Shown: one piece after another, positions 3,077 through 20,261 of the stretch
Layout: every line of letters starts with the position of its first letter
Position numbering within the stretch: position 1 is the stretch's first letter
Assembly (NCBI GenBank): GCA_964453715.1
Contig: CAYVQX010000002.1
Coordinates: 1-34,756, forward strand
Length of the DNA stretch: 34,756 bases
Direction: 5' to 3'
Origin: an uncultured Candidatus Saccharibacteria bacterium
Lineage (GTDB): Bacteria > Patescibacteriota > Minisyncoccia > Phycocordibacterales > XYD1-FULL-46-19
The notes under the pieces: generated by a model
Seen by the model: the letters and a program-made list of their open reading frames with translations, nothing else
Database searches by the model: none
Told to the model about the DNA's origin: nothing
Made by a program: the position numbers and the translations under genes

Positions 3077-3105
3077 AGTATAAACAATATTATTCTTATC
3101 CACAA
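3077..3105 (-). promoter_or_regulatory. Promoter candidate for 2702-3070: TTGTGG - 17 nt - TATACT - 6 nt - ATG (minus strand)
   Basis: The minus strand reads TTGTGGataagaataatattgtt TATACT gattaa ATG. The -35-like hexamer overlaps the TGTGGATAA 9-mer. Confidence 0.4.
3096..3104 (+). promoter_or_regulatory. Perfect DnaA-box consensus 9-mer TTATCCACA in the divergent intergenic region
   Basis: Exact match read directly from the sequence. It lies 26 nt from the ATG of 2702-3070 and 60 nt from the ATG of the T4SS-like operon. The function is not established. Confidence 0.35.
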
Positions 3106-3146: not shown

Positions 3147-3152
3147 TATAAT
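3147..3152 (+). promoter_or_regulatory. -10 box TATAAT, 11 nt upstream of the first ATG of the T4SS-like operon
   Basis: ggTATAATaaagccataaaATG. No convincing -35 and no SD. Confidence 0.4.
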
Positions 3153-3163
3153 AAAGCCATAAA

Positions 3164-3910
3164 ATGGCCTTTAGTCTGCCTTTACCAACAAAAAAGTTTT
3201 GGCTTTTTGCCGGCCTTGCGGTCTTGGTAGTTTTAATCAGCCTTTGGTATGTAGGTAAGGGGTATCAAGACAATTTAGAAGCTACCAATTTGACTAATTT
3301 AAAATTATCGAAAGAAGAAGTTAGTTATTACAACAAAATAATAGCCCGCGCCATTGAGTTAAGGAGTATAACTAATCAAACTTTAACCCTTAAAGATAAG
3401 GCAAACTTAGACAACTTAACGTTAAAACCTGTTACCTCTGACTATAAATTATCAGATTTATCAATAGGGGTTAGTGAGGACGCCCCCTCATTAAAACTTT
3501 ACGGCCAAGCCTTAGGCCAAATTTTAAGCACCTTTAGTGCGGTTAGAACAAATGAGTTAAAGGTTATGCTTGATGCTCTAGATTCTCATGATCAAAGTCA
3601 ATTAGCTCAGTTAGTAAAAATAAAAAATGATTTAGATAATACTGTCTTAAAATTATTAAAACTCAAAACTCCCAAGAGTGCCGGATCAATACAATTACAA
3701 CTAATCAACAATTTAAATAATCAAAGCAAACTTATTAACAATATGGGCCAAGTTTTTGATCAGCCACTATTAGCTTTGGAAAGTGCCCAACTTGAATATA
3801 AAACTGTTGGTGAATTTTATCAGTTAACAGGGGAAATAAATAAATATTTTCGTACTCGAGGTGTTACCTTTAGCCCTAATGAAGCAGTTAAAATATACCA
3901 AACCATTTAA
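3164..3910 (+). CDS. Membrane-anchored protein, 248 aa (N-terminal TM, extracytoplasmic helical domain), first gene of the T4SS-like operon
   Basis: TM segment FWLFAGLAVLVVLISLWYV. The rest is L/N/K/Q-rich. The size and bitopic topology resemble VirB8-type scaffolds, but I see no motif for that. Confidence 0.6.
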   Translation: MAFSLPLPTKKFWLFAGLAVLVVLISLWYVGKGYQDNLEATNLTNLKLSKEEVSYYNKIIARAIELRSITNQTLTLKDKANLDNLTLKPVTSDYKLSDLSIGVSEDAPSLKLYGQALGQILSTFSAVRTNELKVMLDALDSHDQSQLAQLVKIKNDLDNTVLKLLKLKTPKSAGSIQLQLINNLNNQSKLINNMGQVFDQPLLALESAQLEYKTVGEFYQLTGEINKYFRTRGVTFSPNEAVKIYQTI

Positions 3911-3913
3911 CCT

Positions 3914-6904
3914 ATGAGCCCTATTATTAAAAAACTAACCTCCATCATTACCGCTATTGCTTTATGTATTGGGCCAATTAGCGTTTCAGCTCAAGCTCTT
4001 GCTGACCCTAATGCTTACCAACAAGTTATACAGAATAATAATTCTAGTGGTTCTATTTTTTCAAATTCCGACCCATTTGGTACTGGGAGTGTAATTGATG
4101 GCTACACTGGTGCTGGTGGGGGGAGCCAATTTTTACAACAAATTATGGGCGATCAAACTGCCTGTAAGGCTGACGCCCCACAAGCCCAAAATACCCAACA
4201 AACAGCCTTGGGTAAGGGTATTGGTCAGGGGGTATCTCAGGCCGCAATTCAAACTCTTCAAAAAGACTTTGGCAACCAATTACAACAAGCAGTTACTGCT
4301 GACTTACCACAAAGACTTCAAAACAATATTCAAACTCAATTGCCTCAAGTTTTTGCTACTAATTTACAGAAACATATTCAAGATTATGGTTTAGACCCAA
4401 ACAATATTTCCGATGAGGTTAAAACGGCTGTAATGCAAGAGAGTATCAACCAAATTGTAAAACAAAGTATGGGGGATAGTATTAAAAACTCTGTCCCAAC
4501 CGCCGTAAACAACTCGTTAAAACAGGGTCTAGCATCTAACCTCCCTAGCGCTTTAAGTAACTCACTACAAGGAACACTGGCCGGTCCACTCCAAAATGCT
4601 CTCTTAGGAGCAATTGCCGGTAATTCTAATATTGGCAGCAATTTAATTGATCAAGTCACTAGTAATATTGGCAGTAAAATTACCGCAGCAATTATGCCGC
4701 AATTAACTAGCTCAATTGATCAAATTACTTCCTCATTAACTGATGGTGTAGTTGGACAATTAGACCAATCTATTAATGGATTAATAAACAACTCAACAGG
4801 ATCAATAAATCAATCATTACAGCAAGTTACTAACTCTGTTACAAATTTAAGTCACACATTAACAACATCACTAACTAGCCCAATAAATGATCTAAGCACA
4901 GGATTAAATGGGTCAATTAGAGATTTAACAAATGCCTTCACTAACCCAGTAAACAACCTGTCCACTCAAATATCCCAGTCTGTTGGCAATTTAAGTCATC
5001 AATTAACAGGAGCCATTACTAACCCGATTAATGATATAAGTAAGCAAATTAGTAGCTCATTTGGTGGGATGGTTGATAATTTGGGTAAAACTATAACTAA
5101 TCCTATAAATCAAATTGCCGATCAGGTCTCTGGTGTGGCCAACAACGCAGTTCAACAAGTTGTTAAACCAGTAACAGATCTAGTTGGAAATACTGCTAGC
5201 GGTTTGGTTACTAACGTTTTAGGTGGTTCCGCAGGCGGATTACTAGGTGGTTTAGTTAGTGGTAGTGTACCCGTACATGAGGTGGGGGACTTATTAAGTG
5301 TGACCAAGGATATTAAGACTACAGAGGATGATTCTAAAAAGATTTTAATTGAGATTTGTGGGCACATTAAAGATGTACGCCGAATTGAACTAGCAATGGA
5401 GCAAAAGGAGTTTGTTCAAGACCCTCAAGCTCGTGACCAAGCTAATAAATTAACAGGTGATTACTCTAAACAATATTACGACTATTTAAATAGTGGCCAC
5501 ATTTCTAGTGCCAATGGTGAAAAAGATAGTTTTGTTATCCAAAACTATGGCGATTATCTACAAAGTAAGCGCGATGAAGCAGCAAGAATTACCCTTAATA
5601 ACGATCTTAAAAATTCTGGTGATATTTTTAAAGATACAACCAGAGAAATATTAACCAAACAAGAGGCTGCGAGCAAAAATTATCCAGCATCTACAATCTC
5701 TAAGTCTGATTACGATAAGCTCAAAAACCCTAGCCAACTTAGTAGTAATGATTTTACCGCTTTACTCACTAAGGTTTACGACCCAACCAAACCAAATAGT
5801 CCTTTAACCTCTTATATTATAAATAACGAGGTTTTACAACAAGCGAAAGATAGAGCTGAGCAATTAGCCATTGCTGAATCTCAATCATCCGGCTTTAAGC
5901 CAGTAGAGGAATGTGAGCAAAAATCTAGCGATGGACAAGATTGTTTAAAATGGAAGATTATTACTCCTAGCTCTATTGTAGAGCATAATACTGGAACAGT
6001 ATTAGATACTAAAGTTAATCAATTAGAACAAGTGCATGAAGTTAGTGATTTAAGTCAAAATACCCCAACCCCAAGCGTACAAGAGACCCAAACTCTCAAA
6101 CCTTCTGGCAGTACTGCTGGGGGCAGTTCTGGATTTAATATTGGTTTTCTTAGTAACGCCTTCTCTAATTTACTAAACCGACTAAGAGGGATTACTAGTG
6201 GAGGCTTAAATCTACCTGGAATTAGCGACGGCAACACTAGTGGCGGGAACACCGATAGCGGTGGTAGTTTAGATGTTAACTTTAATTTTACCTCGGCTAC
6301 AACTGATCAGATTTTATCTGGTGAAGCTAATAATGCCTTTTTAAACTGGCAGGCAACTGGAGCCTCCCAATGCGTGGCAAATAATGACTGGCTATCCTTA
6401 AAAGCCTCTGGTAATAAATTTGAAACTTTGGCTACCAAGGGGCAGGATGTTGGTACTAGTGGCAGCTTAACACTACATTTTCCTCTTACTTTTGAAGCCA
6501 AGTTAACCAGGTTACGCGATGGAGTTAACACTGATTGGGTGGCAGATAGTATAATTAATCCTAGTTTAACCCAACAAGTTAGCGCTTTAGCTATTAGCGC
6601 TAGTGATATTGCGGCCGGTGATCAATTTACCCTGACTGTTAAGAATGGTAACAGCTCAACCGCTCAAATCTCAACCACACTTACTACCGGATCAGCCAGC
6701 GAGCTTAATACAGGCTTAGAAAATGCTATTAATAACTTATCGGCCGGAAGTAATGAAGCTACACTATTTGGGCAATTCCTTATTACTACAGGGGTAAATC
6801 CAGAGGGAACTAGTTTTATCACTATGACCATTAACCCAATTTACCAAATTACCTGCACCAACGGATCAGACTCAATAGATAAAACTGTAAACATCATTAG
6901 ATAA
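3914..6904 (+). CDS. Large secreted Q/N/S/T-rich repeat protein, 996 aa (candidate surface fibre or adhesin)
   Basis: Signal peptide MSPIIKKLTSIITAIALCIGPISVSAQA. Long low-complexity helical-looking region with TNPIN-type repeats. The C-terminal ~250 aa looks beta-rich. Starts 3 nt after the previous stop. Confidence 0.75.
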   Translation: MSPIIKKLTSIITAIALCIGPISVSAQALADPNAYQQVIQNNNSSGSIFSNSDPFGTGSVIDGYTGAGGGSQFLQQIMGDQTACKADAPQAQNTQQTALGKGIGQGVSQAAIQTLQKDFGNQLQQAVTADLPQRLQNNIQTQLPQVFATNLQKHIQDYGLDPNNISDEVKTAVMQESINQIVKQSMGDSIKNSVPTAVNNSLKQGLASNLPSALSNSLQGTLAGPLQNALLGAIAGNSNIGSNLIDQVTSNIGSKITAAIMPQLTSSIDQITSSLTDGVVGQLDQSINGLINNSTGSINQSLQQVTNSVTNLSHTLTTSLTSPINDLSTGLNGSIRDLTNAFTNPVNNLSTQISQSVGNLSHQLTGAITNPINDISKQISSSFGGMVDNLGKTITNPINQIADQVSGVANNAVQQVVKPVTDLVGNTASGLVTNVLGGSAGGLLGGLVSGSVPVHEVGDLLSVTKDIKTTEDDSKKILIEICGHIKDVRRIELAMEQKEFVQDPQARDQANKLTGDYSKQYYDYLNSGHISSANGEKDSFVIQNYGDYLQSKRDEAARITLNNDLKNSGDIFKDTTREILTKQEAASKNYPASTISKSDYDKLKNPSQLSSNDFTALLTKVYDPTKPNSPLTSYIINNEVLQQAKDRAEQLAIAESQSSGFKPVEECEQKSSDGQDCLKWKIITPSSIVEHNTGTVLDTKVNQLEQVHEVSDLSQNTPTPSVQETQTLKPSGSTAGGSSGFNIGFLSNAFSNLLNRLRGITSGGLNLPGISDGNTSGGNTDSGGSLDVNFNFTSATTDQILSGEANNAFLNWQATGASQCVANNDWLSLKASGNKFETLATKGQDVGTSGSLTLHFPLTFEAKLTRLRDGVNTDWVADSIINPSLTQQVSALAISASDIAAGDQFTLTVKNGNSSTAQISTTLTTGSASELNTGLENAINNLSAGSNEATLFGQFLITTGVNPEGTSFITMTINPIYQITCTNGSDSIDKTVNIIR
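4871..5134 (+). repeat. Four degenerate 22-26 aa coding repeats (LTSPINDLS / TNPVNNLS / TNPINDIS / TNPINQIA) inside the 996-aa protein
   Basis: Repeat-initial Thr codons at 4874, 4940, 5018 and 5096, all in frame. The spacing is 22, 26 and 26 codons. Confidence 0.6.
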
Positions 6905-6905
6905 T

Positions 6906-9191
6906 ATGAATTTTAGTTGGAAAAAATTAATCCTATTCTTAATTATAATAACGACCCTATCTTATGCTGGCCCAATAAAAGCCCAATCTGGCCTTGGTAG
7001 TTATTCCGCCGGACAAACAGACTATTCTTCCATGTTTGATTCAGTAATTCAGGGTGTGGCCAATTTTATTGAGGGTATTGACCATAGTAATAATCAAACC
7101 ATAGACAAATACAATCAATATATAGACTCAATATCACAACAGATAGGGAATCTAGATAACTTAATAGAGTCTGGGCAAATGACGCCAGAAGAACTCCAAC
7201 AAGCAAACGATCAGTTAAGTAAACTGCACAATGAATTAAATTGGGCCACTTCAGCTAGGGATAACGTTGTCGCGAGTACACAACAGACAACAGGGCAAGC
7301 GAGGAAGGAGATAGCTGATGCTGCTAAATCAAATTATACTTGTAACTTTTTTAGTGGTGAATTTAGCGTAACTAACTGCGGTTTTGCCATAATGTCATGG
7401 GCCTTAACAATTGTTTTGTGGATAATATCTTGGATTTTATATTTAGCTTCTTGGATATTTAACGAATCGGTAAAATTTTCAATTTTAGATTTTTATACCT
7501 ATGCCCAATCATCAGGAGTTGCTGCCGCTTGGAAGATCGCGCGTGATTTAGCTAATATTTTCTTTATTTTTATTCTTCTCTACGTAGCAATAAAGACGGT
7601 TCTAGGGGAGGGTGGGGCACAAAAATTGGTCGCTAAAGTTATTATAATGGCACTTCTAGTCAACTTTAGCGCGGTTATACCTAGGGTCGTTATTGACGCT
7701 AGTAATATTTTGGCCCTGCAATTTTATAATAGTATTGGAGATGGTGAAAAACATGATATTAGCGCCACTATAATGAACTGGAATATTATTGGCGCACAAT
7801 CCTTAGGGGCAGAACCAACCTCACAAACTAGTAATATACCCGATTTACCTAGCTCTCTTATACAATCAGTTGGGATCGCTATTTTAATGATCACCTTGGC
7901 CTTTGTTTTAATTGTGGCCGCAGTGATGTTTTTATACAGAACTATAGCCCTACTTTTTATAATCATAGTCTCACCCGTAGCAGTTATGTCTTGGGCCTTA
8001 CCTAAATATAGTGGCCAAGGGGATAAGTGGTTAAGTAAGCTAATTAGTGAGTCTTTATATGCTCCGGCTTATTTGTTTTTACTCTATATGGTTGTGCAAA
8101 TATTTAAAAATACTGACCGATCCATAAATAGCGGCCTCTCGACTCAAATAATATTCTTTATCTTAATGAACTCAATGTTACTGGCCTGTGTGTCTGTAGC
8201 TAACTTCTTTGGAGCGGAGGGGTCCAAGAAGGCAGAGGGGATAGGAAAAAGTTTTAGAGGCTTCTTTACCGGCGCCGCTGCTGGTATAGCCGGGACAGCT
8301 GGTGTTTATACCCTTGGCCGAACGGCCCAAAAAATCGCAGAGAGTGATCGATTTAAAGATCTCGATAAAAAGTGGTATGGCCGCGCTATTAAAAACATAG
8401 GTCTAGATAAAGGCCTTAAAGCTGTTTCTAGTGGTAAATACGGTTCATCATCTAACTATAATGAGAGGGTAGAAAGAAATGCTGACCGCATTACCCAATG
8501 GAAAAACCCTGAAGACCAACTAAACTATTTAACTAGTTTAAATAGTACAGACCAGAAAGCCGCCTGGAAGAAATTAAGTGATAGACAAAAAACACTCTTA
8601 CAACAGAATGTAAATCACTTAGACGACAAAAATTCAAAAAAGAAAATCATTACCGACCTAATTAAAGGCATGTCCATTGAAGAACAAGAGAAAATGGATA
8701 AAGCTTTAGGTGACGCGGTAAAACAAAAATCTGAAGCAGTTGATAGATTTAATGCTGGTAGGGCGGTAGAGTTCTTTACTAAAGGTAAGGTTAGGGAGAT
8801 AAAAGAATTCCATAAAAATCCTGACGGTAGTGATGATGAGTCTAGGCCAATCTATAAAACCACTCCCGATGGTAAAGATATATATGAAGATTTTGACATC
8901 AATGTTCCCGGAGCCGATACTAAAGTCAAAAAGTACTTAGCTAAAGTTAAAGATAATCAATCTACACAATTATCGAAATCTCTTAAATTTAATACTAGTG
9001 ATGAAAAGAAGCTCAGTAACTTAATATTAAGGGAGCTAACACCAGGGCAAGTGATAAAATTATTAGGTGATGCTAATTTGGATAATTCCCAATACGCAAA
9101 TATAACTAGTTTCATCATCAATAACCCAGGAAGCACATTGAGTCGGGTGGTGAAAAAGGTTCCCGAGATTGGCGCTAAGTTTCTACCATAA
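6906..9191 (+). CDS. VirB6/TrbL-like polytopic membrane protein with a long hydrophilic C-terminal tail, 761 aa
   Basis: Signal/TM at the N-terminus, a ~120 aa coiled-coil-like segment, then a block of W/I/L/F-rich TM helices (AIMSWALTIVLWIISWILYLASWIF ... LANIFFIFILLYVAI ... AILMITLAFVLIVAAVMFLY ...). After that comes a ~290 aa K/D/E-rich tail. It sits next to PrgI and VirB4 homologues. Confidence 0.6.
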   Translation: MNFSWKKLILFLIIITTLSYAGPIKAQSGLGSYSAGQTDYSSMFDSVIQGVANFIEGIDHSNNQTIDKYNQYIDSISQQIGNLDNLIESGQMTPEELQQANDQLSKLHNELNWATSARDNVVASTQQTTGQARKEIADAAKSNYTCNFFSGEFSVTNCGFAIMSWALTIVLWIISWILYLASWIFNESVKFSILDFYTYAQSSGVAAAWKIARDLANIFFIFILLYVAIKTVLGEGGAQKLVAKVIIMALLVNFSAVIPRVVIDASNILALQFYNSIGDGEKHDISATIMNWNIIGAQSLGAEPTSQTSNIPDLPSSLIQSVGIAILMITLAFVLIVAAVMFLYRTIALLFIIIVSPVAVMSWALPKYSGQGDKWLSKLISESLYAPAYLFLLYMVVQIFKNTDRSINSGLSTQIIFFILMNSMLLACVSVANFFGAEGSKKAEGIGKSFRGFFTGAAAGIAGTAGVYTLGRTAQKIAESDRFKDLDKKWYGRAIKNIGLDKGLKAVSSGKYGSSSNYNERVERNADRITQWKNPEDQLNYLTSLNSTDQKAAWKKLSDRQKTLLQQNVNHLDDKNSKKKIITDLIKGMSIEEQEKMDKALGDAVKQKSEAVDRFNAGRAVEFFTKGKVREIKEFHKNPDGSDDESRPIYKTTPDGKDIYEDFDINVPGADTKVKKYLAKVKDNQSTQLSKSLKFNTSDEKKLSNLILRELTPGQVIKLLGDANLDNSQYANITSFIINNPGSTLSRVVKKVPEIGAKFLP

Positions 9192-9194
9192 ATT

Positions 9195-9686
9195 ATGAGA
9201 TTTACTCCACAACAAATAGAAGAGAGGAAAAAAATACTACCAGAAGATATTAGGGTGGCACTATCTTCTATGGATACTGGTGACAAGATTGAAGCTATCA
9301 GTACTAGACATAAGCTTCATATAGATCAGATGGGGGAGGTAAGCCGCCACACTGCCTATCTAATGTTAGGCTTATTAAAACCTTCTCAATTTATTCCTGA
9401 ATTAACCACAGCTCTTCACATCCCTCAAAAAGAAGCGGTTGAAATTGCCAAAGAGGTTAATGAGCAGATTTTTAAGCCGATTCGTGAGTCGCTTAAAAAA
9501 ATCCACCAACTAAATGATGCTGGGATGGGGGAAGTAGAGACCCCTAATCAAACTATTAAACCAGCCAAAACAGGTGATTTTGACGATCGTTTGGGTAAAT
9601 ACTTATCATCTACCCCAATTGAGCAAAACAAACCAAGCTCAATACCACCTTATACCCAAGATCCATATCGAGAGGCCATAAATTAA
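9195..9686 (+). CDS. Soluble 163-aa protein of unknown function within the T4SS-like operon
   Basis: No TM or signal peptide. Helical N-terminal ~110 aa, then a P/Q/T-rich tail. Starts 3 nt after the previous stop. Confidence 0.6.
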   Translation: MRFTPQQIEERKKILPEDIRVALSSMDTGDKIEAISTRHKLHIDQMGEVSRHTAYLMLGLLKPSQFIPELTTALHIPQKEAVEIAKEVNEQIFKPIRESLKKIHQLNDAGMGEVETPNQTIKPAKTGDFDDRLGKYLSSTPIEQNKPSSIPPYTQDPYREAIN

Positions 9687-9720
9687 GTTAATTTATATGA
9701 TATTATGTGGCTAAGAAAAT

Positions 9721-10137
9721 ATGAATTTTCAGGTGCCACAATTCATTGAGATTGAGGATAAAATCTTTGGTCCTTTAACTTTCAAGCAGTTTTTATATGT
9801 GGTTGGTGGGGTAGGGTTAGCCTTTATTCTGTATGTTTATTTACCTATTTATTTATCAATTATCCCAATAGTCGCCGTAGTGGGGACATCATTGATGTTG
9901 GCCTTTTTTAAGTATAATGAGCGGCCCTTTATCCAATTATTAGAATCTGCTTTTTATTACAGCTTAACCAATAAGTTATACGTGTGGAAAAAGGAGGGTA
10001 AACGTCAGCCAACCGTTGTGGCCACTAATACCCTAAACCAGTCTGAAGAGCAGTCTAAAATGAAGCTGCCTAAATTATCTAATAGTCGGCTCAAAGACTT
10101 ATCTTGGAGTTTAGATGTTAAAGATTTAATCCGTTAA
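9721..10137 (+). CDS. PrgI-family (VirB3-like) membrane protein, 138 aa
   Basis: N-terminus MNFQVPQFIEIEDKIFGPLTFKQFLYVVGGVGLAFILYVYLP followed by a second TM, which is the typical PrgI pattern. It lies just upstream of the VirB4-like ATPase, separated from it only by the 214-aa ORF. Confidence 0.65.
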   Translation: MNFQVPQFIEIEDKIFGPLTFKQFLYVVGGVGLAFILYVYLPIYLSIIPIVAVVGTSLMLAFFKYNERPFIQLLESAFYYSLTNKLYVWKKEGKRQPTVVATNTLNQSEEQSKMKLPKLSNSRLKDLSWSLDVKDLIR

Positions 10138-10139
10138 AT

Positions 10140-10784
10140 ATGGCCAACACTGCTAAAAATGCCAAGACCACTCAAGAGTTTCTCCCGATCCAAGAGATTA
10201 GGGATGGTGTAGTAGTACTTAAAAATGGTGGCTTAAGGTTAGTTTTAATTTGCTCTTCTCTTAATTTTTCTCTCAAATCACCAGATGAGCAACAAGCTCT
10301 TATCTTCCAATATCAAAACTTTTTAAACTCTTTGGACTTCCATGTTCAAATTTTTATCCAATCTCGCAAGCTTAATATTCAACCATACTTGATGGTTTTA
10401 GAAAAAAGATTAGCCGAGCAGAGTAATGACTTAATTAAAATCCAAACCAAGGAGTATATTGATTTTATTAAGAAATTTACTGAATCAGTAAACGTTATGG
10501 CTAAATCATTCTTTGTAATTATCCCTTTCGATCCACTTATTATTGACGTAGCCAAAGGAGGCTTTTTAAATCGTTTCCGCGGGGAGGGTAATAAATCTGC
10601 CGCCCAAACTAAAAAAGACAACTTTGAGGAGAGTAAGACCCAATTAGAGCAGCGCGCCTCGGTGGTAGAGCAAGGGTTAGCTCGGGTTGGTATCCGCACC
10701 GCCCCCTTAGGCACGGAGGAGTTAGTCGAGCTTTACTTTAAAATCTTTAACCCAGGGGAAAACGAGGTCCCAATTTTAGAATAA
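10140..10784 (+). CDS. 214-aa protein resembling a stand-alone VirB4 N-terminal domain
   Basis: QEFLPIQEIRDGVVVLKNGGLRLVLICSSLNFSLKSPDEQQALIFQYQNFLNSLDFHVQIFIQ resembles N-termini of Gram-positive VirB4-type ATPases. It also weakly resembles the N-terminus of the next ORF (TFFVISYPRF...INLDKVFDVSIFVH). No Walker motifs. Confidence 0.55.
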   Translation: MANTAKNAKTTQEFLPIQEIRDGVVVLKNGGLRLVLICSSLNFSLKSPDEQQALIFQYQNFLNSLDFHVQIFIQSRKLNIQPYLMVLEKRLAEQSNDLIKIQTKEYIDFIKKFTESVNVMAKSFFVIIPFDPLIIDVAKGGFLNRFRGEGNKSAAQTKKDNFEESKTQLEQRASVVEQGLARVGIRTAPLGTEELVELYFKIFNPGENEVPILE

Positions 10785-10785
10785 T

Positions 10786-12612
10786 ATGGCTATTTTAGAC
10801 TTCTTAACTGGCAAAAAAGCGGCTCCTGAGCCAACTTTAGTTACCCCTATTTTACCCCAAGACATCTACGAGATGGGGGTTTTAGAGCTTAAAGATATTA
10901 TTGCTCCATCGGCCTTAAGGATTACCTCTAAAGGGGTTAATTTGGGCGATAAATTAAGCCGGACCTTCTTTGTTATCTCTTATCCTAGATTTTTAACTGA
11001 GGGTTGGTTCTCGCCCGTAATTAACTTAGACAAGGTTTTTGATGTTTCAATCTTTGTCCATCCAATAGATACCAGTATTGCCCTCCGCCAACTCCAAAAA
11101 AAGGTGGCTGAGGTAGAGAGTCAGATTAGACTAAAAGAGGAGAGGGGATTAGTGCGAGACCCAGTTTTAGATGTTGCTTACCAAGATATTGAGTCGCTCC
11201 GTGACCAACTCCAACAAGCCCGGGAGAAAATTTTTGATGTTGGTGTATATATCACTATTTATGGTGACACTGATGAGGAGTTAGACAAAATTGAGACTGA
11301 GATTAAGTCTATTTTAGACTCTAAATTGGTTTATATTAAGCCAGCCCTCTTCCAACAAGAGGAGGGGTTTAAGAGTGTTGTGCCAACCGCCGATGACCTA
11401 CTTAAAGTTAACTCTAAGCTTAACTCCTCACCACTTTCCTCCCTGTTCCCGTTTGTGTCTTTTGACCTAACCTCAAACAAAGGTATTCTCTATGGTATCA
11501 ACCGCCAAAACTCCTCTCTAGTTCTTTTTGATCGCTTCTCGCTTGAAAATTATAACTCTGTTACCTTTGCTCAATCTGGTGCTGGTAAATCTTACGCCAC
11601 CAAATTAGAGATTTTACGCAGCTTAATGTTTGATGCAGATGTTATTGTTCTTGATCCAGAGCGAGAATATGAGTATTTAGCAGAGGCAGTTGGTGGTCGC
11701 TACTTTAACATCTCCTTAACCTCAGAGCACCACATTAACCCTTTTGACCTACCCTTCCCCCGAGAGGACGAGTCACCGGCTGACGTTTTACGCTCTAACA
11801 TTATTAACTTAGTTGGTTTATTTAGGATCATGTTGGGTGGCTTAACTCCAGAGGAGGACTCAATTATTGATAATGCTATCGCCGAGACTTATGCCTTAAA
11901 AGATATAACCGCCGATACCGACTACACCGGTAAGCCAGCTCCTCTCCTCTCTGACTTAGCTTTAGTTTTGGCTGGTATGGAGGGTGGTGAGTCATTGGCC
12001 CAACGCCTACTTAAATACACCCAAGGTACTTGGGCTGGTTTTATTAACAAACCAACTAACGTTGATATTAATAAAAACTTTGTTGTCTTCTCGGTCCGAG
12101 ATATGGAAGACGAGCTCAAGCCAGTGGTTATGTATATTGTGATGCACCATATTTGGAACTCGATTAGGCGCAACTTAAAAAAACGCCTCTTAGTTGTTGA
12201 CGAGGCTTGGTGGATGATGAAGGCCGAGGACACAGCCTCCTTCCTCTTCTCTTTGGTAAAACGAGGACGTAAATACTTTTTAGGTGTTTCTACTATTACT
12301 CAAGATGTTGAAGACTTCTTAAAATCTCCTTACGGTACACCAATTATTACCAACTCATCTATCCAATTACTACTTAAACAATCGCCGGCCTCTATTGATG
12401 TTGTGCAAAAAACTTTTAACTTAACTGATGAGGAAAAATTCTTGTTATTAGAGTCCCAAGTAGGGGAGGGTATCTTCTTTGCTGGTTTAAAACACGTGGC
12501 GATTAAAATTATTGCCTCTTATACAGAAGACCAGATTATTACATCTGATCCGTCGCAAATTTTAGCCATCCGCAAATCCCGAGAAGAACTTAAAGCTAGC
12601 CAAAACATCTAA
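10786..12612 (+). CDS. VirB4/TraE/PrgJ-type T4SS ATPase, 608 aa
   Basis: Walker A FAQSGAGKSYATK (GAGKS at 11578-11592). Walker B RLLVVDEAWWMM (DE at 12199-12204). GVSTITQDVEDF motif. N-terminal VirB4-type domain (RTFFVISYPRFLTEGWFSPV). Confidence 0.9.
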   Translation: MAILDFLTGKKAAPEPTLVTPILPQDIYEMGVLELKDIIAPSALRITSKGVNLGDKLSRTFFVISYPRFLTEGWFSPVINLDKVFDVSIFVHPIDTSIALRQLQKKVAEVESQIRLKEERGLVRDPVLDVAYQDIESLRDQLQQAREKIFDVGVYITIYGDTDEELDKIETEIKSILDSKLVYIKPALFQQEEGFKSVVPTADDLLKVNSKLNSSPLSSLFPFVSFDLTSNKGILYGINRQNSSLVLFDRFSLENYNSVTFAQSGAGKSYATKLEILRSLMFDADVIVLDPEREYEYLAEAVGGRYFNISLTSEHHINPFDLPFPREDESPADVLRSNIINLVGLFRIMLGGLTPEEDSIIDNAIAETYALKDITADTDYTGKPAPLLSDLALVLAGMEGGESLAQRLLKYTQGTWAGFINKPTNVDINKNFVVFSVRDMEDELKPVVMYIVMHHIWNSIRRNLKKRLLVVDEAWWMMKAEDTASFLFSLVKRGRKYFLGVSTITQDVEDFLKSPYGTPIITNSSIQLLLKQSPASIDVVQKTFNLTDEEKFLLLESQVGEGIFFAGLKHVAIKIIASYTEDQIITSDPSQILAIRKSREELKASQNI

Positions 12613-12614
12613 AC

Positions 12615-13085
12615 ATGGACGACATTAAAAAACCAAAAACAAAAGATGAAGACCGAGGCCCAAAAGATAAAGATGGTGATAAGGTAATTAATGGAAATGA
12701 CCCTAAGCAGGAGCCGCCACAACCTAAAAAATTAATTGGCACTAGTTTTTGGATAATGTTGTTTATTGTTATTATTAAAGATTTAATAGATGTAGTGGCT
12801 GATTTTTCAGTTGTTTTTTCAGTAATTGCTCCAATTACCGGCTTTATTGTAACGCTAATCTTATGGTTTTATTATTACTTAAGTGGAGTTAAAGCTTCAA
12901 CTAAAACTGTTTCGACTTTTGTTATTACCAGTATAATTGGATTAATCCCTTTTATTAATTTACTACCAGAGACAGCCTTAAACCTTATTTTAACTAGGAC
13001 GTTTGAGAATAATCAGAAACTTCAAAGAGTTGCTAAATTAGTTTCAGTTAAAAGTACTGCCAAATCAGCAATTGAAGCGGTATAA
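12615..13085 (+). CDS. Small polytopic membrane protein, 156 aa, with a K/D-rich N-terminus
   Basis: ~45 aa charged N-terminus, then 3-4 hydrophobic segments (FWIMLFIVIIKDLIDVVADFSVVFSVIAPITGFIVTLILWFYYYL..., FVITSIIGLIPFINLL). No family recognised. Confidence 0.6.
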   Translation: MDDIKKPKTKDEDRGPKDKDGDKVINGNDPKQEPPQPKKLIGTSFWIMLFIVIIKDLIDVVADFSVVFSVIAPITGFIVTLILWFYYYLSGVKASTKTVSTFVITSIIGLIPFINLLPETALNLILTRTFENNQKLQRVAKLVSVKSTAKSAIEAV

Positions 13086-13092
13086 TTAAATT

Positions 13093-14079
13093 ATGGTTAA
13101 ATTACTGAAGATTTTAATATTATTAACAATTATCTTAACCTCCTTTAGAATTTTTGCTTTTACTGAAAATACTGTGGGTGGGAATGTTTATAGCCAAGTT
13201 TTACCAAATGACCCATCACCAAACCAGGATGTATCTATTAACTTAACTAGTTATGATTTTAATCTTGATTTAAGTCAAATAGTTTGGACTATAAATAATC
13301 AAATCGTGGCAAGTGGTTTAGGTTTAAAAAAAATAAATTTTAAACTAGGGAATCAAAATTCACCATCTATAGTAAATGTTTCAATTGTTAGTCCATTAGG
13401 ACAAAGAGTCTTAAAAACTTTCAATTTTAATCCCGGAACAGTTGATTTATTATGGCAAGCAAACACTTATACTCCTAGTTTTTATCAAGGCAAATCTCTA
13501 CCATCATTAGGTAGTACTATAAAACTACTAGCTATACCAAATATTACTGATGGACAAAAAAATAAGATTCCAGATTCAAGGTTAGTTTTTAATTGGTATA
13601 AAAATGACAAATTATTAAGTGAATCATCTGGTATTGGCAAAAATACAACTGATATTAAATTAGATAACATTATTAGCCAAACAAATATTAAGGTCAATGT
13701 TTCATCCTTAACTGGTAATAGCGCCGTTGGCAGTACTACTATTAGGGTCGTTAATCCTCAAGTAATTTTCTACCCCAACAATTCCAGTTCGACTATTTAT
13801 AGCGCTCTAGGAAACGTTATAAGTGGTGGCTCTGTGGTTAATATAATTGCTGAACCATATTATTTTTCATTAGATGACTTAATCAACCAGTCAATAATAT
13901 TCCAGTGGCTAAGCGGTAATAAAATAATATCTAATACCCCCAACTTATACTTAGACAACAATAGGCCAAATTCACTACCCTTAACCCTTGTAGTTTCAAA
14001 CCAAAATTCAATTCTACAAAAGGTATCTAAAGATGTTACAATTCTATTAAATCCAAATGATAACAGCGCGGGATTTTAG
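13093..14079 (+). CDS. Secreted protein, 328 aa, with three internal beta-rich repeats
   Basis: Signal peptide MVKLLKILILLTIILTSFRIFA. A recurring module is marked by IVWTINNQIVASG / LVFNWYKNDKLLSES / IIFQWLSGNKIISNT, each followed by ...V(N/S)VS(I/S)... strands. Confidence 0.6.
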   Translation: MVKLLKILILLTIILTSFRIFAFTENTVGGNVYSQVLPNDPSPNQDVSINLTSYDFNLDLSQIVWTINNQIVASGLGLKKINFKLGNQNSPSIVNVSIVSPLGQRVLKTFNFNPGTVDLLWQANTYTPSFYQGKSLPSLGSTIKLLAIPNITDGQKNKIPDSRLVFNWYKNDKLLSESSGIGKNTTDIKLDNIISQTNIKVNVSSLTGNSAVGSTTIRVVNPQVIFYPNNSSSTIYSALGNVISGGSVVNIIAEPYYFSLDDLINQSIIFQWLSGNKIISNTPNLYLDNNRPNSLPLTLVVSNQNSILQKVSKDVTILLNPNDNSAGF

Positions 14080-14965
14080 ACTAATACTAACAAGTACCTT
14101 AGCCCTAGGTGCAGGTTTTATACTGTGGCCAAAGTTTATTTTAGCTGCCACCACCCAAGGATACACCTTCCTAGATCCATCTGTTTTTGGTTTAAACGGT
14201 GGGCAAGGTATTGATTTTATTGGTTATGCTAAATTAATTTATCAAACCATCTTAAGTGTGGTGGTTGTTATGTCAATTATTATGGTGGCAATGGGGGGGA
14301 TGGAGTATATTGCAAGTGGTGCTGGGGGAGCTAAGAGTGAGGGTAAGCAGAGGATTACAAATGCTTTAATTGGCTTACTTATTGCTTTAACTTCTTATTT
14401 AATTTTAAATACTATTGATCCTAGTTTTGTAAATTTTAAATTAAGTCTTTCTAAAATACAGACCGTAAGCACCCCGAGTATACCTAGTACTGGAAATAAT
14501 CCAAGTAATTCTACTGGGGGTGGGCCTAGTAGTGGGGGAGGGCCAACCCAATATCCTAGTGGCACATTATCTGAAGCAGATGCTAGGAATCAATTGGCCG
14601 CGGCTGGTATTTCTGTAAATAAAAATCCTTGCCCGGATGGCGTTCCATATACTAGTGTATCTGGTGGTTGCACTAACTTAGGTGGATTAAGCCAAGAAAG
14701 TATTAACCAAGTTATTAATCTTAAACAAAATTGTAATTGCCAAGTAATAGTAACTGGTGGGACAGAAGGAGGGCATTCACCTGGTGGTTTTTATGGAGCA
14801 CATACACCAGGCGGGACAGCTATTGATATTGGGCGTAATACGTCACTAGACAACTATATTCAAAACAATGGTGGTTCTCCAACAATGTCCCAAGGTAGGC
14901 CTATTTATCAAATAAATGGACGTAAATACTGGAGAGAAGATGATCTTCATTGGCACAGTTATTAA
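14057..14965 (+). CDS. T4SS pilin-like (VirB2/TrbC-type) N-terminal domain fused to a C-terminal putative LAS/M15-like peptidase domain, 302 aa
   Basis: The N-terminal ~125 aa has a signal/TM plus two hydrophobic helices around MGGMEYIASGAGGAKSEGKQRITNALIGLLIALTSYLILNTIDP, a pattern typical of CPR T4SS pilin-like proteins. A G/S/P linker follows. C-terminal motifs are HTPGGTAID (14801-14827) and terminal HWH (14948-14956). Overlaps the previous ORF by 23 nt. Confidence 0.6.
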   Translation: MITARDFRLILTSTLALGAGFILWPKFILAATTQGYTFLDPSVFGLNGGQGIDFIGYAKLIYQTILSVVVVMSIIMVAMGGMEYIASGAGGAKSEGKQRITNALIGLLIALTSYLILNTIDPSFVNFKLSLSKIQTVSTPSIPSTGNNPSNSTGGGPSSGGGPTQYPSGTLSEADARNQLAAAGISVNKNPCPDGVPYTSVSGGCTNLGGLSQESINQVINLKQNCNCQVIVTGGTEGGHSPGGFYGAHTPGGTAIDIGRNTSLDNYIQNNGGSPTMSQGRPIYQINGRKYWREDDLHWHSY

Positions 14966-14975
14966 ATAAAAGTTT

Positions 14976-16076
14976 ATGAAAATTACTAAAAACCAACTTA
15001 TTGCTGTCGTAATTGTTTTAATAGTAATTTTAGGTGGTTATTGGTTTTTAAGTCGCTCTAATCAAACCACAAACACAGTTCAAACGGCTCCATCTCCTGT
15101 TAATTCATTTTTTCCGACCACTGCAATTAAAAATATTGTTACCACAATTAGTAGTGTAATAACCTCAACCTCTACTAACAACCCTGGAGGAGATCCATCT
15201 TTTGATCAATCGCCAAAAAAAGATTTTGATATTTTAAAGGCTCACAAAATAGCTGACGGCCCTATTGATGATTTTATCTTTACCAATACCACCGGCTCTA
15301 CAACTATCGCTTATATTAATAAAAAATCTGGCTCAATAAATTTTTTACCAGCAGGCGCTTCTAGCACTAAGTTGTCTATATTAACTAGCACTAGTACTAA
15401 TATTTACTCTCCAGATGGTAAACAATTATTGACTATTAAAAACACTAGTGATGGTCTAATAGGGGAGGTAACTAATCTAAAAACTAAATTAACCACCAAA
15501 GTTACCTTATCTCCACTCACTGATTGGTTAGTTGCTTGGCCAGAATTAAATAACTTAAGTCTCCAAAGTAAACCATCTTCTGGGGTTAGTGGTTTTACTT
15601 TTACCTTCAACTTAAAAAATAAATCCACCTCTAAAGTTTTAGGACCACTTAATGGACTAAACAGCCTAATTAGCCCTGATGCTTCTAAAATTATTTACTC
15701 CACTAATGAAAATGGGCAAATTAATACTGGGTTAGCAATTATTAGTAAAAATACTAATGTCTTAGGGATAAAAACATTAGTAGATAAGTGTATTTGGAAA
15801 GATAAAAAATACGTTATTTGTGCTGTTACCAATAAATACCAAACAGCTAATTACCCTGACGCTTGGTACCAAGGATTAACCTTCTTCAATGATGATATTT
15901 GGCTCATAAACACAGATAACCTAGAGTCTTATTTAATCAGTATTTTTGGACAGCCCTTAGCTAGTGATCCAGTTGACGCAATAAATCTAAAAATTAGCCC
16001 GGATGGTAAAACTCTTTATTTTATAAACAAAAGAGATAGTAGCTTATGGAGTTTTGATATCAGACACGCCTTTTAA
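14976..16076 (+). CDS. Membrane-anchored protein with PD40/TolB-like beta-propeller repeats, 366 aa, last gene of the operon
   Basis: N-terminal TM LIAVVIVLIVILGGYWFL. Three SPDG-type motifs (SPDGKQLLT, SPDASKIIYS, SPDGKTLYF) are spaced ~90-105 aa apart. Confidence 0.55.
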   Translation: MKITKNQLIAVVIVLIVILGGYWFLSRSNQTTNTVQTAPSPVNSFFPTTAIKNIVTTISSVITSTSTNNPGGDPSFDQSPKKDFDILKAHKIADGPIDDFIFTNTTGSTTIAYINKKSGSINFLPAGASSTKLSILTSTSTNIYSPDGKQLLTIKNTSDGLIGEVTNLKTKLTTKVTLSPLTDWLVAWPELNNLSLQSKPSSGVSGFTFTFNLKNKSTSKVLGPLNGLNSLISPDASKIIYSTNENGQINTGLAIISKNTNVLGIKTLVDKCIWKDKKYVICAVTNKYQTANYPDAWYQGLTFFNDDIWLINTDNLESYLISIFGQPLASDPVDAINLKISPDGKTLYFINKRDSSLWSFDIRHAF

Positions 16077-16793
16077 TTCTAATGCTCTCCGTTTAACAAT
16101 AAGTTCGTGACCAATAGTAAACAAGTTACTAGTAATCCAATAAAGAGATAGGGCGGATGGTAGGGCAGAGGCAACAAACACAATCATTAATGGCATCACA
16201 TAACGCATTTGCATATTCATACTTCTATTTAAATCATCTTTAAATGACGGCACATCGTCAGTATTACGAGGTGGGAGAGGCGGTACAGCTAACTTCATTT
16301 GTAAAAATTGACTAAACCCAACCAATAAAGCTAGGGGTAAACTTTTTTTAGTCACATCCAATAAACCAAGGAAGAGGTGCTGGATTGATTCTGGGGCAGG
16401 AATAAAGCCATATAAAACATCTGGGTTTATTTGAATACTACCTCTAAAAACATAGAAGAGTGATAAAATTATTGGCAATTGAATTAAAACTACTACAAAG
16501 CTAGTAAGTGGATTAATACCATTTTCCCGATAAAGAGCGAGGACTTTTTTGGTTTGTGTCTCTTTATCATCTTTATGTAGCTCTTTAATTTTATTTAACT
16601 CAACTTCTATACCCTTCATCTTCTTTTGGGTAGTTAGAGATTTATGATAAAGAGGGTAGAGAAGTAGTCTAACAATAATAGTTAATAAAATTATCGCTAG
16701 CCCCAGATCTTGATGGGGTAAATTAACCGCCAAAAAAACTAAAGCGTTATAAAGTGGTTGATAAAAAATAGCCTTTAAAATACCAAGTATCAT
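16044..16793 (-). CDS. yidC: Membrane protein insertase YidC (short form, 249 aa)
   Basis: GLAIILLTIIVRLLLYPL...KMK...GINPLTSF..LIQLPIILSLF...MRYVMPLMIVF...LSLYWITSNLFTI. Conserved rpmH-rnpA-yidC order. Confidence 0.88.
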   Translation of the reverse strand: MILGILKAIFYQPLYNALVFLAVNLPHQDLGLAIILLTIIVRLLLYPLYHKSLTTQKKMKGIEVELNKIKELHKDDKETQTKKVLALYRENGINPLTSFVVVLIQLPIILSLFYVFRGSIQINPDVLYGFIPAPESIQHLFLGLLDVTKKSLPLALLVGFSQFLQMKLAVPPLPPRNTDDVPSFKDDLNRSMNMQMRYVMPLMIVFVASALPSALSLYWITSNLFTIGHELIVKRRALELKGVSDIKTP

Positions 16794-16798
16794 ACTAT

Positions 16799-17107
16799 TT
16801 ATTTAATTAATTGATTTAAATCTTCCTTTAAAGCCTTTAAAGTTGGGTTAGGTGGTGTTTTAACCCTTAATCCAATCAATAAGGCTTGGTTAGATTCTAA
16901 CACCCCCTTAAACATACCCAGAAGGCTTCTAACGCGCCGTTTAATCAAATTACGGTCGGCGGCCTTAGGAACCATTTTTTTGCTTATTTGGAAGTAAATT
17001 TTAGGGTCTGTAGCCTTAGATTTAAGGACTAAAGACACATAAAGATAACGGCCAGAAAACCGTTTTAAGACCTTTTTAGGCTTATTACGCCCCTGTGGGG
17101 GCAACAT
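16799..17107 (-). CDS. rnpA: RNase P protein component
   Basis: 102 aa, basic. KAADRNLIKRRVR matches the RNR motif region. Located 2 nt downstream of rpmH. Confidence 0.75.
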   Translation of the reverse strand: MLPPQGRNKPKKVLKRFSGRYLYVSLVLKSKATDPKIYFQISKKMVPKAADRNLIKRRVRSLLGMFKGVLESNQALLIGLRVKTPPNPTLKALKEDLNQLIK

Positions 17108-17109
17108 AG

Positions 17110-17244
17110 TTAAACAGCCAACTTAGCGCGCCCTTTTTGGCGACGCCGTTTTAGGACCCTTTGGCCGTTTTTACTCTTAGAACGGACCAAGAAACCGTGG
17201 GTTTTGGCGCGTTTACGCTTTTTAGGCTGGTAGGTTACAGACAT
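17110..17244 (-). CDS. rpmH: 50S ribosomal protein L34 (44 aa; absent from the supplied ORF track)
   Basis: Hand translation of the minus strand gives [44 protein letters not shown], the classical L34 sequence. ATG at 17244-17242, TAA at 17112-17110. Confidence 0.93.
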
Positions 17245-18726: not shown

Positions 18727-18906
18727 ATAGTGGATAAAAATAAAAAATATTTTATGAACTACTACTTATTAACAAATAAAATTATAAATATCCCCAATTT
18801 AAATTTTAAAAAATCTTTTAATTATAAAGATATTATTAACTTATCCAGTTAATCACATACTATTATTCTTATTATTCTCTATTTATAAATAAATAATATA
18901 TACCTT
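18727..18906. other. Candidate oriC / DNA-unwinding region between dnaA and dnaN
   Basis: 180 nt with 26 G+C by hand count (~14%). DnaA-box-like AGTGGATAA at 18729-18737 (8/9) and TTATCCAGT at 18841-18849 (7/9). Tandem 9-mer TATTATTCT x2 at 18861-18878. Classical rpmH|dnaA-dnaN context. Confidence 0.5.
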
Positions 18907-20010: not shown

Positions 20011-20012
20011 TA

Positions 20013-20261
20013 ATGAAAAAAATAAGTGATTTTATAAAAGTTGATCAGTTATCTAAAAATTCTTTTTTTGAACTTGGTATTAAAGATAAGTTTAAAGAAT
20101 TAATTAATAGTGAGTATAAAATAAATTTAAATACTTCTGATATAAAAATTAAAGATAAGGTAATTTTAATTAAAGGTAATAGTAAATTAAAGACAAGAAT
20201 TTTATTAAATAAAAATAATATTCTAATTAAACTTAATGGTTTAATTAGAGATATTAAATAG
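20013..20261 (+). CDS. DUF721/DciA-like small protein, 82 aa (tentative)
   Basis: Position right after dnaN. The pattern ...FKELI...IKIKDKVILIKGNSKLKTRILLNKNNILIKLN resembles the DUF721 core (strand, strand, helix, ...il..ln). The 3' end overlaps the PBP gene by 21 nt. Confidence 0.4.
   Translation: MKKISDFIKVDQLSKNSFFELGIKDKFKELINSEYKINLNTSDIKIKDKVILIKGNSKLKTRILLNKNNILIKLNGLIRDIK

Follow-up and report, generated by a model that had tools for sequence, protein, structure and literature searches.

The window analysed here, a 34,756-nucleotide (nt) stretch of patescibacterial DNA (contig CAYVQX010000002.1) to which all our statements on absent genes are confined, harbours at positions 3164-16076 a run of eleven genes which very probably encodes a core-genome type IV secretion system (T4SS) of the Patescibacteria type, belonging to a member of the Paceibacteria, non-conjugative, and serving a host-dependent lifestyle. 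The lineage of this locus derives from Gram-positive MPF-FATA conjugation machinery, and the locus itself belongs to the core genome, is inherited vertically and stands under strong constraint; it is not an integrative and conjugative element (ICE). The original prediction, made from the sequence alone, had likewise proposed a chromosomally fixed, monoderm-type and non-conjugative T4SS-like machine, and this is borne out by synteny, by the lack of mobility genes, by the fit of the ATPase to the CD1110 family and by the published literature.

Composition, conservation and relatives of the locus

All eleven open reading frames (ORFs) lie on the plus strand at exactly the coordinates given earlier. 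The successive intergenic gaps (3, 1, 3, 34, 2, 1, 2, 7, -23 and 10 nt) agree with the range of -23 to +34 nt in the original prediction, and independent gene calls on four public contigs with an identical VirB4 return the same eleven genes. They are listed in Table 1, where products without a family name are numbered by their place in the operon.

The VirB4-type ATPase scores 364.6 bits against the NCBIfam model NF045971 (CD1110 family; cut-off 325), aligns to positions 185-733 of the 752 in that profile, and also matches P-loop_TraG (5.8e-26) and AAA_10 in Pfam. Its Walker A motif GAGKS (11578-11592) and its Walker B motif LLVVDE (DE at 12199-12204) are found precisely where they had been predicted, so that the call stands above a curated cut-off and with exact positions. 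The missing N-terminal part is encoded by the preceding gene: its product matches (i) the mycoplasma VirB4 model VirB4_plasma (positions 98-232, 8e-10), (ii) the CD1110 model (positions 2-119, 7.6e-8), (iii) the TrsD/TraD family NF041427 (2.8e-5) and (iv) in a precomputed annotation, the TraC-like family PF26593. The profile matches all lie under the whole-protein cut-offs, as is expected for a fragment. Judged by these matches, this product is TrsD, that is, the N-terminal domain of VirB4, and VirB4 is split here. The two genes are separate in 13 of 13 mapped loci, and 79 of the 80 loci have a recognisable TrsD; the split is ancestral, as in plasmid pGO1, and no frameshift. The count of unassigned products thus falls from the seven originally given to six. 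PrgI, which had been called as a PrgI/VirB3-like protein, exceeds the Pfam cut-off for PF12666 (39.8 versus 27 bits); its gene adjoins the trsD/virB4 unit at a conserved position and is detected in 75 of the 80 loci.

The identification of the VirB6/TrbL-like protein is weak. Six or seven hydrophobic segments followed by a hydrophilic C-terminal extension of ~320 amino acids (aa), conservation of the gene at the same position in 61 loci, and the assignment of VirB6 to the corresponding position in a published survey (PMC12102498) fit, if weakly, an 'extended VirB6'-like channel protein. Profile evidence counts against it: the TrbL score of 18.7 bits is under the Pfam cut-off of 25.9, and only 2 of 30 orthologues match TrbL, both weakly.

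To place the locus among its relatives, one genome per species was scanned, which yielded at least 579 loci with a VirB4 relative, and the best 80 were analysed. Their VirB4 proteins are 73-96% identical to ours, and all stem from metagenome-assembled genomes that belong to the candidate phyla radiation (CPR); where labels are informative they read Paceibacterota or Parcubacteria (e.g., Taylor-, Vogel-, Zambryski-, Campbell-, Nomura- and Kaiserbacteria). By its matches, VirB4 may belong with the patescibacterial VirB4 proteins, the best 80 genome matches being in CPR/Paceibacteria and the best curated model Gram-positive. The recurrent gene order is ksgA, (DUF192), g01, g02, VirB6, g04, PrgI, TrsD, VirB4, g08, g09, pilin, g11, yidC(-), rnpA(-), dnaA, dnaN, pbp(-). 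In the synteny comparison this order, from ksgA to dnaN, recurs with small variations only across the 80 Paceibacteria/Parcubacteria species, many gene absences among the 80 loci being contig ends.

A Pfam scan of 39 window ORFs (a few at the window ends were left out) revealed no relaxase, type IV coupling protein (T4CP), VirB11 or integrase, and the window contains no tRNA gene, in agreement with the absences predicted before; flanking att repeats were not searched for. That the locus might be a decayed or domesticated ICE, with its genes for DNA processing located beyond the window, is suggested by the nesting of VirB4 within the Gram-positive MPF-FATA conjugation clade (PMC12102498) and by the fact that only ~35 kb of the genome are visible. 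This is nevertheless highly improbable, and we have rejected a mobile element as an explanation, since the locus occupies the same place between ksgA and yidC-rnpA-dnaA in 80 species, is flanked by housekeeping genes, and is accompanied by neither tRNA nor integrase in the searches described, while a relaxase is present in no more than 103 of the 3,035 Patescibacteria genomes surveyed, and rarely near virB4 (PMC12102498). Moreover, VirB4 diverges no faster than core genes: its median identity to the window protein is 77% (a figure biased somewhat upward by the ranking of loci on VirB4 similarity), compared with 56% for TrsD, 50% for PrgI, 58% for DnaA, 41% for DnaN, 43% for YidC and 48% for KsgA (range for DnaN, YidC, KsgA and the penicillin-binding protein (PBP), 41-52%).

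Table 1. Coordinates of the operon, its upstream sites and the adjoining genes near the presumed origin
Feature	Position	Strand	Description
DnaA box TTATCCACA	3096-3104	+	perfect; 42 nt upstream of -10 box; candidate regulatory site
-10 box TATAAT	3147-3152	+	ends 11 nt before ATG at 3164
g01	3164-3910	+	membrane-anchored extracellular protein, predicted all-helical bundle
g02	3914-6904	+	996-aa secreted S/L/T/N-rich repetitive surface protein
VirB6/TrbL-like	6906-9191	+	polytopic membrane protein; weak profile, topology, position
g04	9195-9686	+	small cytoplasmic protein, no transmembrane helix
PrgI (VirB3 equivalent)	9721-10137	+	PF12666; two transmembrane helices
TrsD-like	10140-10784	+	VirB4 N-terminal domain as own gene, by profile matches
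VirB4-type ATPase	10786-12612	+	C-terminal three quarters; NF045971, Walker motifs
g08	12615-13085	+	small membrane protein, three predicted transmembrane helices
g09	13093-14079	+	secreted or anchored beta-rich protein
g10	14057-14965	+	pilin plus C-terminal domain; PF18895 family, AlphaFold2 model
g11	14976-16076	+	N-terminally anchored extracellular protein
yidC	16044-16793	-	transcribed away from dnaA
rnpA	16799-17107	-	transcribed away from dnaA
rpmH	17110-17244	-	transcribed away from dnaA
dnaA	17314-18726	+	context gene
dnaA-dnaN spacer	18727-18906	+	context
dnaN	18907-20010	+	context gene

On its 5' side the operon is preceded by a SET-domain gene, ksgA and a DUF192 gene, and a gene for a class A PBP lies beyond dnaN. 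The remaining genes of the window are housekeeping genes (tyrS, ruvC, yebC, ruvB, a PilB-type ATPase gene, tsaE, polA and others). The PilB/GspE-type ATPase (26453-28144, minus strand; T2SSE 1.5e-116, MshEN N-domain) places a type IV pilus motor gene ~10 kb from the T4SS operon.

The novelty of the system had been overstated: publications already cover the system itself, its lack of a relaxase, TrsD, the pilins and the proximity to dnaA, and experiments have shown the version of Saccharimonadia to be essential. Using transposon sequencing, Wang and co-workers showed in 2023 that the T4SS of Southlakia epibionticum (SEML1_0006-0019, including the pilins) is essential for epibiotic growth, and noted that neither a relaxase nor a coupling protein is present; according to their table the cluster encodes a VirB4 of 612 aa, next to it a hypothetical product (later named TrsD), PrgI, a pair of VirB6-like proteins, an NTF2-like protein that is not essential, and six pilins of family PF18895 (PMC10633639). 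Quinonero-Coronel and co-workers (2025) surveyed 3,035 genomes, found VirB4 in 2,417 of them, and described a monophyletic Patescibacteria VirB4 clade nested in MPF-FATA with TrsD as the most frequent partner; PrgI, VirB6 and VirB2-like pilins are located near virB4, VirB8 and VirB1 are rare, relaxases are almost absent, and dnaA, dnaN, rnpA, ksgA and rpmH are enriched near virB4 in Paceibacteria and Microgenomatia (PMC12102498). In cultured Paceibacterales living as parasites of methanogens, T4SS pilins also rank among the highest-expressed genes without a known function (PMC10936435), and a 2025 FEMS review describes the system as the first T4SS essential to its owner's survival, speculating on signal exchange or pilus uptake (PMC12857230).

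Our locus shares with the Southlakia system and with other T4SS of the Patescibacteria clade (i) a VirB4 of ~610 residues encoded after a separate TrsD-like gene and prgI, (ii) a VirB6-like protein and one or more PF18895 pilins inside the cluster, and (iii) the lack of a nearby relaxase or coupling protein in a chromosomal setting marked by dnaA, dnaN, rnpA, rpmH and ksgA. It differs in that the window encodes one pilin, which carries a C-terminal domain with conserved Glu, His, Asp and His residues (hereafter the E/H/D/H domain), whereas Southlakia encodes an array of six short pilins; in that no NTF2-like (VirB8-like) protein was found in the window, whereas Southlakia possesses the non-essential SEML1_0012; and in that g08, g09, the pilin-domain fusion and g11 take the place of the separate peptidase and lysozyme genes of published clusters (PMC12102498).

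The pilin-fused domain and the unassigned proteins

The pilin-like domain predicted for g10 (nt 14057 to ~14431) holds at the level of the family, and for g10 itself the evidence is weak: its own T4SS_pilin (PF18895) score of 20.7 bits is below the cut-off of 26.6. By contrast, all 26 homologues tested match T4SS_pilin (best E-value 4.7e-11), eight of them also match TrbC/VirB2, and the family is found in 70 loci by iterated profile search, so that by sequence the identification as a VirB2-like pilin may be regarded as solid for the family. An AlphaFold2 (AF2) model, with a predicted local distance difference test score (pLDDT) of 80, and of ~90 for the C-terminal domain, folds residues 54-120 into a helical hairpin. 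A disordered Gly/Pro/Ser linker leads from the pilin domain to a C-terminal domain of 140 residues (nt 14540-14965), which had gone unflagged before. Pilin-family proteins of the related loci range from 72 to 629 aa, and the part behind the hairpin appears modular; in four loci (L010, L011, L023 and L041) the operon contains two pilin-family genes whose C-terminal extensions differ greatly in length.

In the C-terminal domain of g10, residues E237, H240, D257 and H298 are invariant and H249 is nearly so, in sets of 33 and of 50 diverse members. Searched in full with HMMER, a set of 1.84 billion representatives yielded 1079 cluster representatives (50% clustering) of this domain family. When 50 members were scanned, PF18895 stood in front of the domain in 37, an SLT lytic transglycosylase domain was found in two and MgtE_N in three; these accessory domains aside, no Pfam family covers the domain in the 26 homologues or the 50 members. 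One member (P0157, within the set P0156-P0303) is a fusion of a solute-binding protein with a pilin, and the domain also occurs within proteins of ~1060-1090 aa. The family is widespread and unnamed, was not found in the two papers on such T4SS that were searched for it, and may be wall-cutting.

We give about an even chance to the domain being a cell-wall hydrolase, a candidate metallo-hydrolase by its sequence. This guess is based on the conserved E/H/D/H residues, on relatives of the pilin which carry VanY, NlpC/P60 or CHAP behind the same pilin domain instead, and on the position 3' of virB4; in Southlakia, essential peptidase and lysozyme genes have been reported downstream of virB4 (PMC12102498). 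The pattern H249-x7-D257 followed by E294-x3-H298 follows the order of the LAS/M15 motif, E294 being taken from the sequences and their consensus and not belonging to the residues scored as conserved; likewise, the succession helix, strand, loop, strand, helix, strands resembles that of LAS/M15 zinc peptidases and of the Hedgehog N-domain. Further comparisons give this assignment no statistical support. An 11-sequence profile of the domain searched against the PDB retrieved Hedgehog N-domains only (across the motif, E-value 0.26), and these matches were gone with a 33-sequence profile; hhalign against the VanY domain of the pilin-VanY fusions gave a non-significant probability of 0.2; and Foldseek with the full two-domain g10 model (PDB, BFVD) returned nothing significant, its look-alikes being helical hairpins only (histidine-kinase DHp, encapsulated ferritin), although the C-terminal domain was probably masked. 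A LAS/M15 fold for this domain accordingly is a motif-based proposal and unproven.

Comparison with the VirB1-type hydrolases PrgK, TcpG and TraG of pIP501 may be instructive here. In these systems, as is predicted for ours, a wall-cutting gene belongs to the cluster just 3' of virB4; the domain in the window differs in that none of the hydrolase families of Pfam matches it, in its fusion to the hairpin of a pilin, and in having an activity that is predicted.

The variety of domains behind the hairpin also raises a quite different explanation, namely that the 'pilin' hairpin is a mere membrane anchor for interchangeable wall enzymes, in which case the locus would encode a wall-remodelling and export device without a filament. 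VanY, NlpC/P60, CHAP, alpha/beta hydrolase and E/H/D/H domains, and even a solute-binding protein, are found after the pilin in relatives; VirB2-type filaments would not usually be expected to bear a globular domain of 140 residues on every subunit; and a single pilin gene is present here as compared with the array of six in Southlakia. Yet at this position many relatives encode a protein of 100-140 aa that consists of the pilin alone, and the Southlakia pilins are essential (PMC10633639). We consider the anchor-only reading rather unlikely and retain a pilin, possibly with a fused enzyme, as the preferred interpretation of g10.

Six products are left without assignment. Hydropathy predicts a transmembrane (TM) segment at about residues 12-30 of g01 and thus a bitopic topology, and an AF2 model based on a 74-sequence alignment features a core (residues 95-235, pLDDT 84-97) made of five helices and devoid of beta-sheet. 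A VirB8-like NTF2 fold, which the original prediction had singled out as a possibility for this protein, is thus ruled out on the strength of the model: it is all-helical, and VirB8, TraM, PrgL and NTF2-like folds are absent from its Foldseek matches, the best of which is the four-helix-bundle ligand-binding (sensor) domain of a chemoreceptor with a non-significant E-value of 0.47. The g01 family is present in 51 of the 80 loci and comprises more than 232 database relatives; its core has no Pfam match. In many relatives TSP3 repeats, which bind calcium, are inserted; they are absent from the window protein, and a g01 profile searched against PDB sequences matches such calcium-binding repeats alone.

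The large g02 starts with an N-terminal hydrophobic segment and shows, at residues 894-935, a small and weak immunoglobulin (Ig)-like match (prealbumin-like fold, SpaA_3), its other Pfam matches (DUF445, apolipoprotein) being compositional. It is the fastest-evolving gene of the operon: BLAST finds it in five loci, yet its position always holds a large ORF. We consider g02 a candidate adhesin or fibre, a pattern consistent with a role in host contact.

The four other proteins (g04, g08, g09 and g11) have no significant Pfam relative, and their orthologue profiles retrieve nothing under an E-value of 0.03 from PDB sequences; for g04 and g08 this holds for the window protein, the orthologue set and the orthologue profile. 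After a variable linker, g04 ends in a motif D-P-Y-x-E that is invariant in 35 of 35 orthologues and reads DPYRE in the consensus, in most members and in the window protein; iterated profile search finds g04 in 69 loci. To us, this tail has the look of a docking site for another protein, perhaps the ATPase. Protein g08, found in 55 loci and mostly encoded directly 3' of virB4, exhibits an invariant Asp in its first TM helix and two conserved Pro residues near the third ('IP' and 'LP' motifs), the first of which is invariant. In g09 (77 loci), an N-terminal hydrophobic segment, weak matches of orthologues to Ig_2, Ig_3 and BiPBP_C, and a repeated W..NG motif in the consensus suggest that the protein probably consists of tandem Ig-like domains. 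Finally, g11 (67 loci; TM residues 8-26) matches PD40 and DPPIV_N weakly and TolB at an E-value of 0.15, and is possibly beta-propeller-like.

Promoter, DnaA box and orientation to the origin

Upstream of the operon, TATAAT is read at exactly the position for which a -10 box had been claimed, and no good -35 box precedes it. As the -10 box ends so close to the start codon, the mRNA of the operon probably has no leader, or hardly any, and lacks a Shine-Dalgarno sequence; in relatives the same -10 box is located 6-16 nt before the start codon of g01. A consensus scan for promoter-like sites returned 51 in the window versus 45.2 expected, and a scan for terminator-like hairpins 11 versus 11.5. 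With both at chance level, internal promoters are neither backed nor excluded, and we make no claim on them. No hairpin falls within any intergenic gap of the operon, in keeping with the predicted lack of an internal terminator, for which the scan at chance level likewise allows no claim. At its 3' end, g11 overlaps the convergent yidC by 33 nt (16044-16076), and there is consequently no space for a terminator between the head-on operon and the housekeeping gene.

A perfect DnaA box is present upstream of the -10 box (Table 1). When 50 related loci were searched for the composite of a DnaA box (at most one mismatch), a spacer (36-46 nt allowed) and a TATAAT-like hexamer, the composite with a spacer of 39-43 nt was found just upstream of g01 in the window and in 12 of the 50 relatives (L001, L005, L007, L008, L015, L020, L034, L040, L048, L059, L066 and L068), as compared with ~0.3 expected by chance from the background rate over 2.85 Mb. 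The observed count is inflated by kinship among the loci, but the surrounding sequence is otherwise unconserved, and the fixed spacing between box and hexamer argues for function. The composite occurs 64 times elsewhere, 23 of these in the dnaA-dnaN spacer (oriC).

Direct control of operon transcription by DnaA, as read from these sequence patterns, is a possibility to which we assign clearly less than an even chance. It is weakened by the fact that under strict criteria only about a quarter of the relatives possess the DnaA box. Also less likely than not is the wider proposal that the operon, with a DnaA box at a fixed distance from a near-leaderless promoter lacking a -35 box and with its conserved head-on orientation beside oriC, is wired directly to DnaA, coupling the contact machine to the cell-cycle or nutritional state, and in addition makes a pilin with an unnamed wall-cutting E/H/D/H domain. 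For this locus, DnaA boxes, promoters and orientation are unmentioned both in the 2025 survey and in the results of a text search, and the survey proposes a gene-dosage effect and nothing more (PMC12102498); in the papers searched, a DnaA-box promoter and a near-leaderless start are unreported for T4SS of the Patescibacteria clade.

The window contains five perfect TTATCCACA boxes in 34.8 kb (at 3096, 7417, 24231, 28220 and 32521), where we estimate well under one for a random 9-mer, and with one mismatch allowed there are 19 boxes versus 9.6 expected. Four of the five perfect boxes are in or at the edge of intergenic regions away from the presumed oriC and may mark a DnaA regulon.

The origin itself likely resides in the dnaA-dnaN spacer, an assignment based on gene order, on the AT-rich composition of this 180-nt spacer and on the clustering of boxes upstream of dnaN in relatives. 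One imperfect DnaA box is located inside the spacer and a second directly before the dnaA stop codon. The G+C content is 0.27 over 18001-21000 (the spacer and dnaN, together with the 3' portion of the gene for the PBP) and 0.33-0.50 elsewhere in the window; GC skew is too noisy at the scale of the window for placing an origin. With the operon to the left of the point at which rpmH and dnaA diverge, and its transcription directed towards dnaA, it is head-on to the leftward replication fork, as originally stated for an oriC at 18.7-18.9 kb; this holds for an oriC anywhere within 17.2-18.9 kb. Consistently, the last T4SS gene is convergent with yidC in 13 of 13 mapped loci.

Function, ancestry and significance

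Compared with MPF-FATA systems (Prg of pCF10, Trs/Tra of pGO1 and pSK41, CD1110 of CTn2, and pIP501), the locus shares a monoderm design devoid of VirB7, VirB9 and VirB10, a core of PrgI, VirB4 and a VirB6-like protein, and the split into TrsD and VirB4 seen in pGO1. It differs in that relaxase, coupling protein, oriT, a PrgB-type adhesin and a VirB8-like protein (PrgL/TraM) are missing from the locus, in the presence of a VirB2-like pilin, which Gram-positive systems lack, and in being chromosomal, vertically inherited and origin-proximal, whereas its relatives reside on a plasmid or ICE.

It is thus tempting to propose how the parts would work together. VirB4 and TrsD, docked on PrgI and VirB6, would power the assembly of a pilin structure and/or transport through a VirB6 channel; the E/H/D/H domain of the pilin would locally cut the cell's own wall or that of the host, as VirB1 does elsewhere; and the part that spans the wall and contacts the host might be formed by g01 with its helical bundle, the giant repetitive protein g02, g09 with its Ig-like domains and g11 with its propeller-like fold. 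Transcription would start from the single -10 promoter, yield a near-leaderless mRNA, and perhaps respond to DnaA bound at the 3096-3104 box. The machine may then serve attachment together with the export of proteins to, or the uptake of molecules from, the host, and not conjugation. A role in lifestyle rather than conjugation is indicated by the absence of a linked relaxase or coupling protein and by vertical inheritance next to the origin.

Some points count against this interpretation: no VirB8-like part was found in the operon; the genome may contain a gene for a coupling protein at another place, distant T4CP homologues being present in many Patescibacteria genomes (PMC12102498); and the function in Paceibacteria is extrapolated from a single species of Saccharimonadia.

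An alternative would be that the machine works in reverse, as an uptake device akin to archaeal Ced or Helicobacter ComB that imports DNA, RNA, nucleotides or other molecules from the host. VirB4 partially matches the DNA-import protein CedB (4e-11, far under the cut-off), the scanned ORFs include neither relaxase nor coupling protein, uptake through a T4SS pilus has been proposed in the FEMS review (PMC12857230), and 37 patescibacterial VirB4 proteins cluster with archaeal homologues (PMC12102498). We nevertheless judge this unlikely. The best fit for the VirB4 of the window is the bacterial CD1110 family and not CedB; searches revealed no partner resembling CedA or ComB; and the direction of transport is unreadable from sequence. 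In Southlakia, moreover, comEC is dispensable for growth (PMC10633639, PMC12857230), and its loss ends competence but not viability (PMC12857230), so that uptake for transformation is not the reason why the T4SS of this organism is essential. A non-conjugative core-genome T4SS that serves the host-dependent lifestyle is therefore the explanation we prefer.

The window adds no new kind of system, and provides instead a clean example from Paceibacteria in which every subunit is delimited. Two wrong leads are removed, as g01 is not VirB8-like on its predicted structure and the product of 10140-10784 is TrsD by its profile matches and no orphan. Two testable points are raised in turn: the E/H/D/H domain fused to the pilin may take on the VirB1-like role for which no other candidate is present, and the operon may be preceded by a promoter with a conserved DnaA box. 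Along with the unassigned subunits, it is this domain and this promoter that hold the remaining interest of the locus. The T4SS of Patescibacteria probably underlies the life on other cells of a very large and mostly uncultured bacterial radiation.

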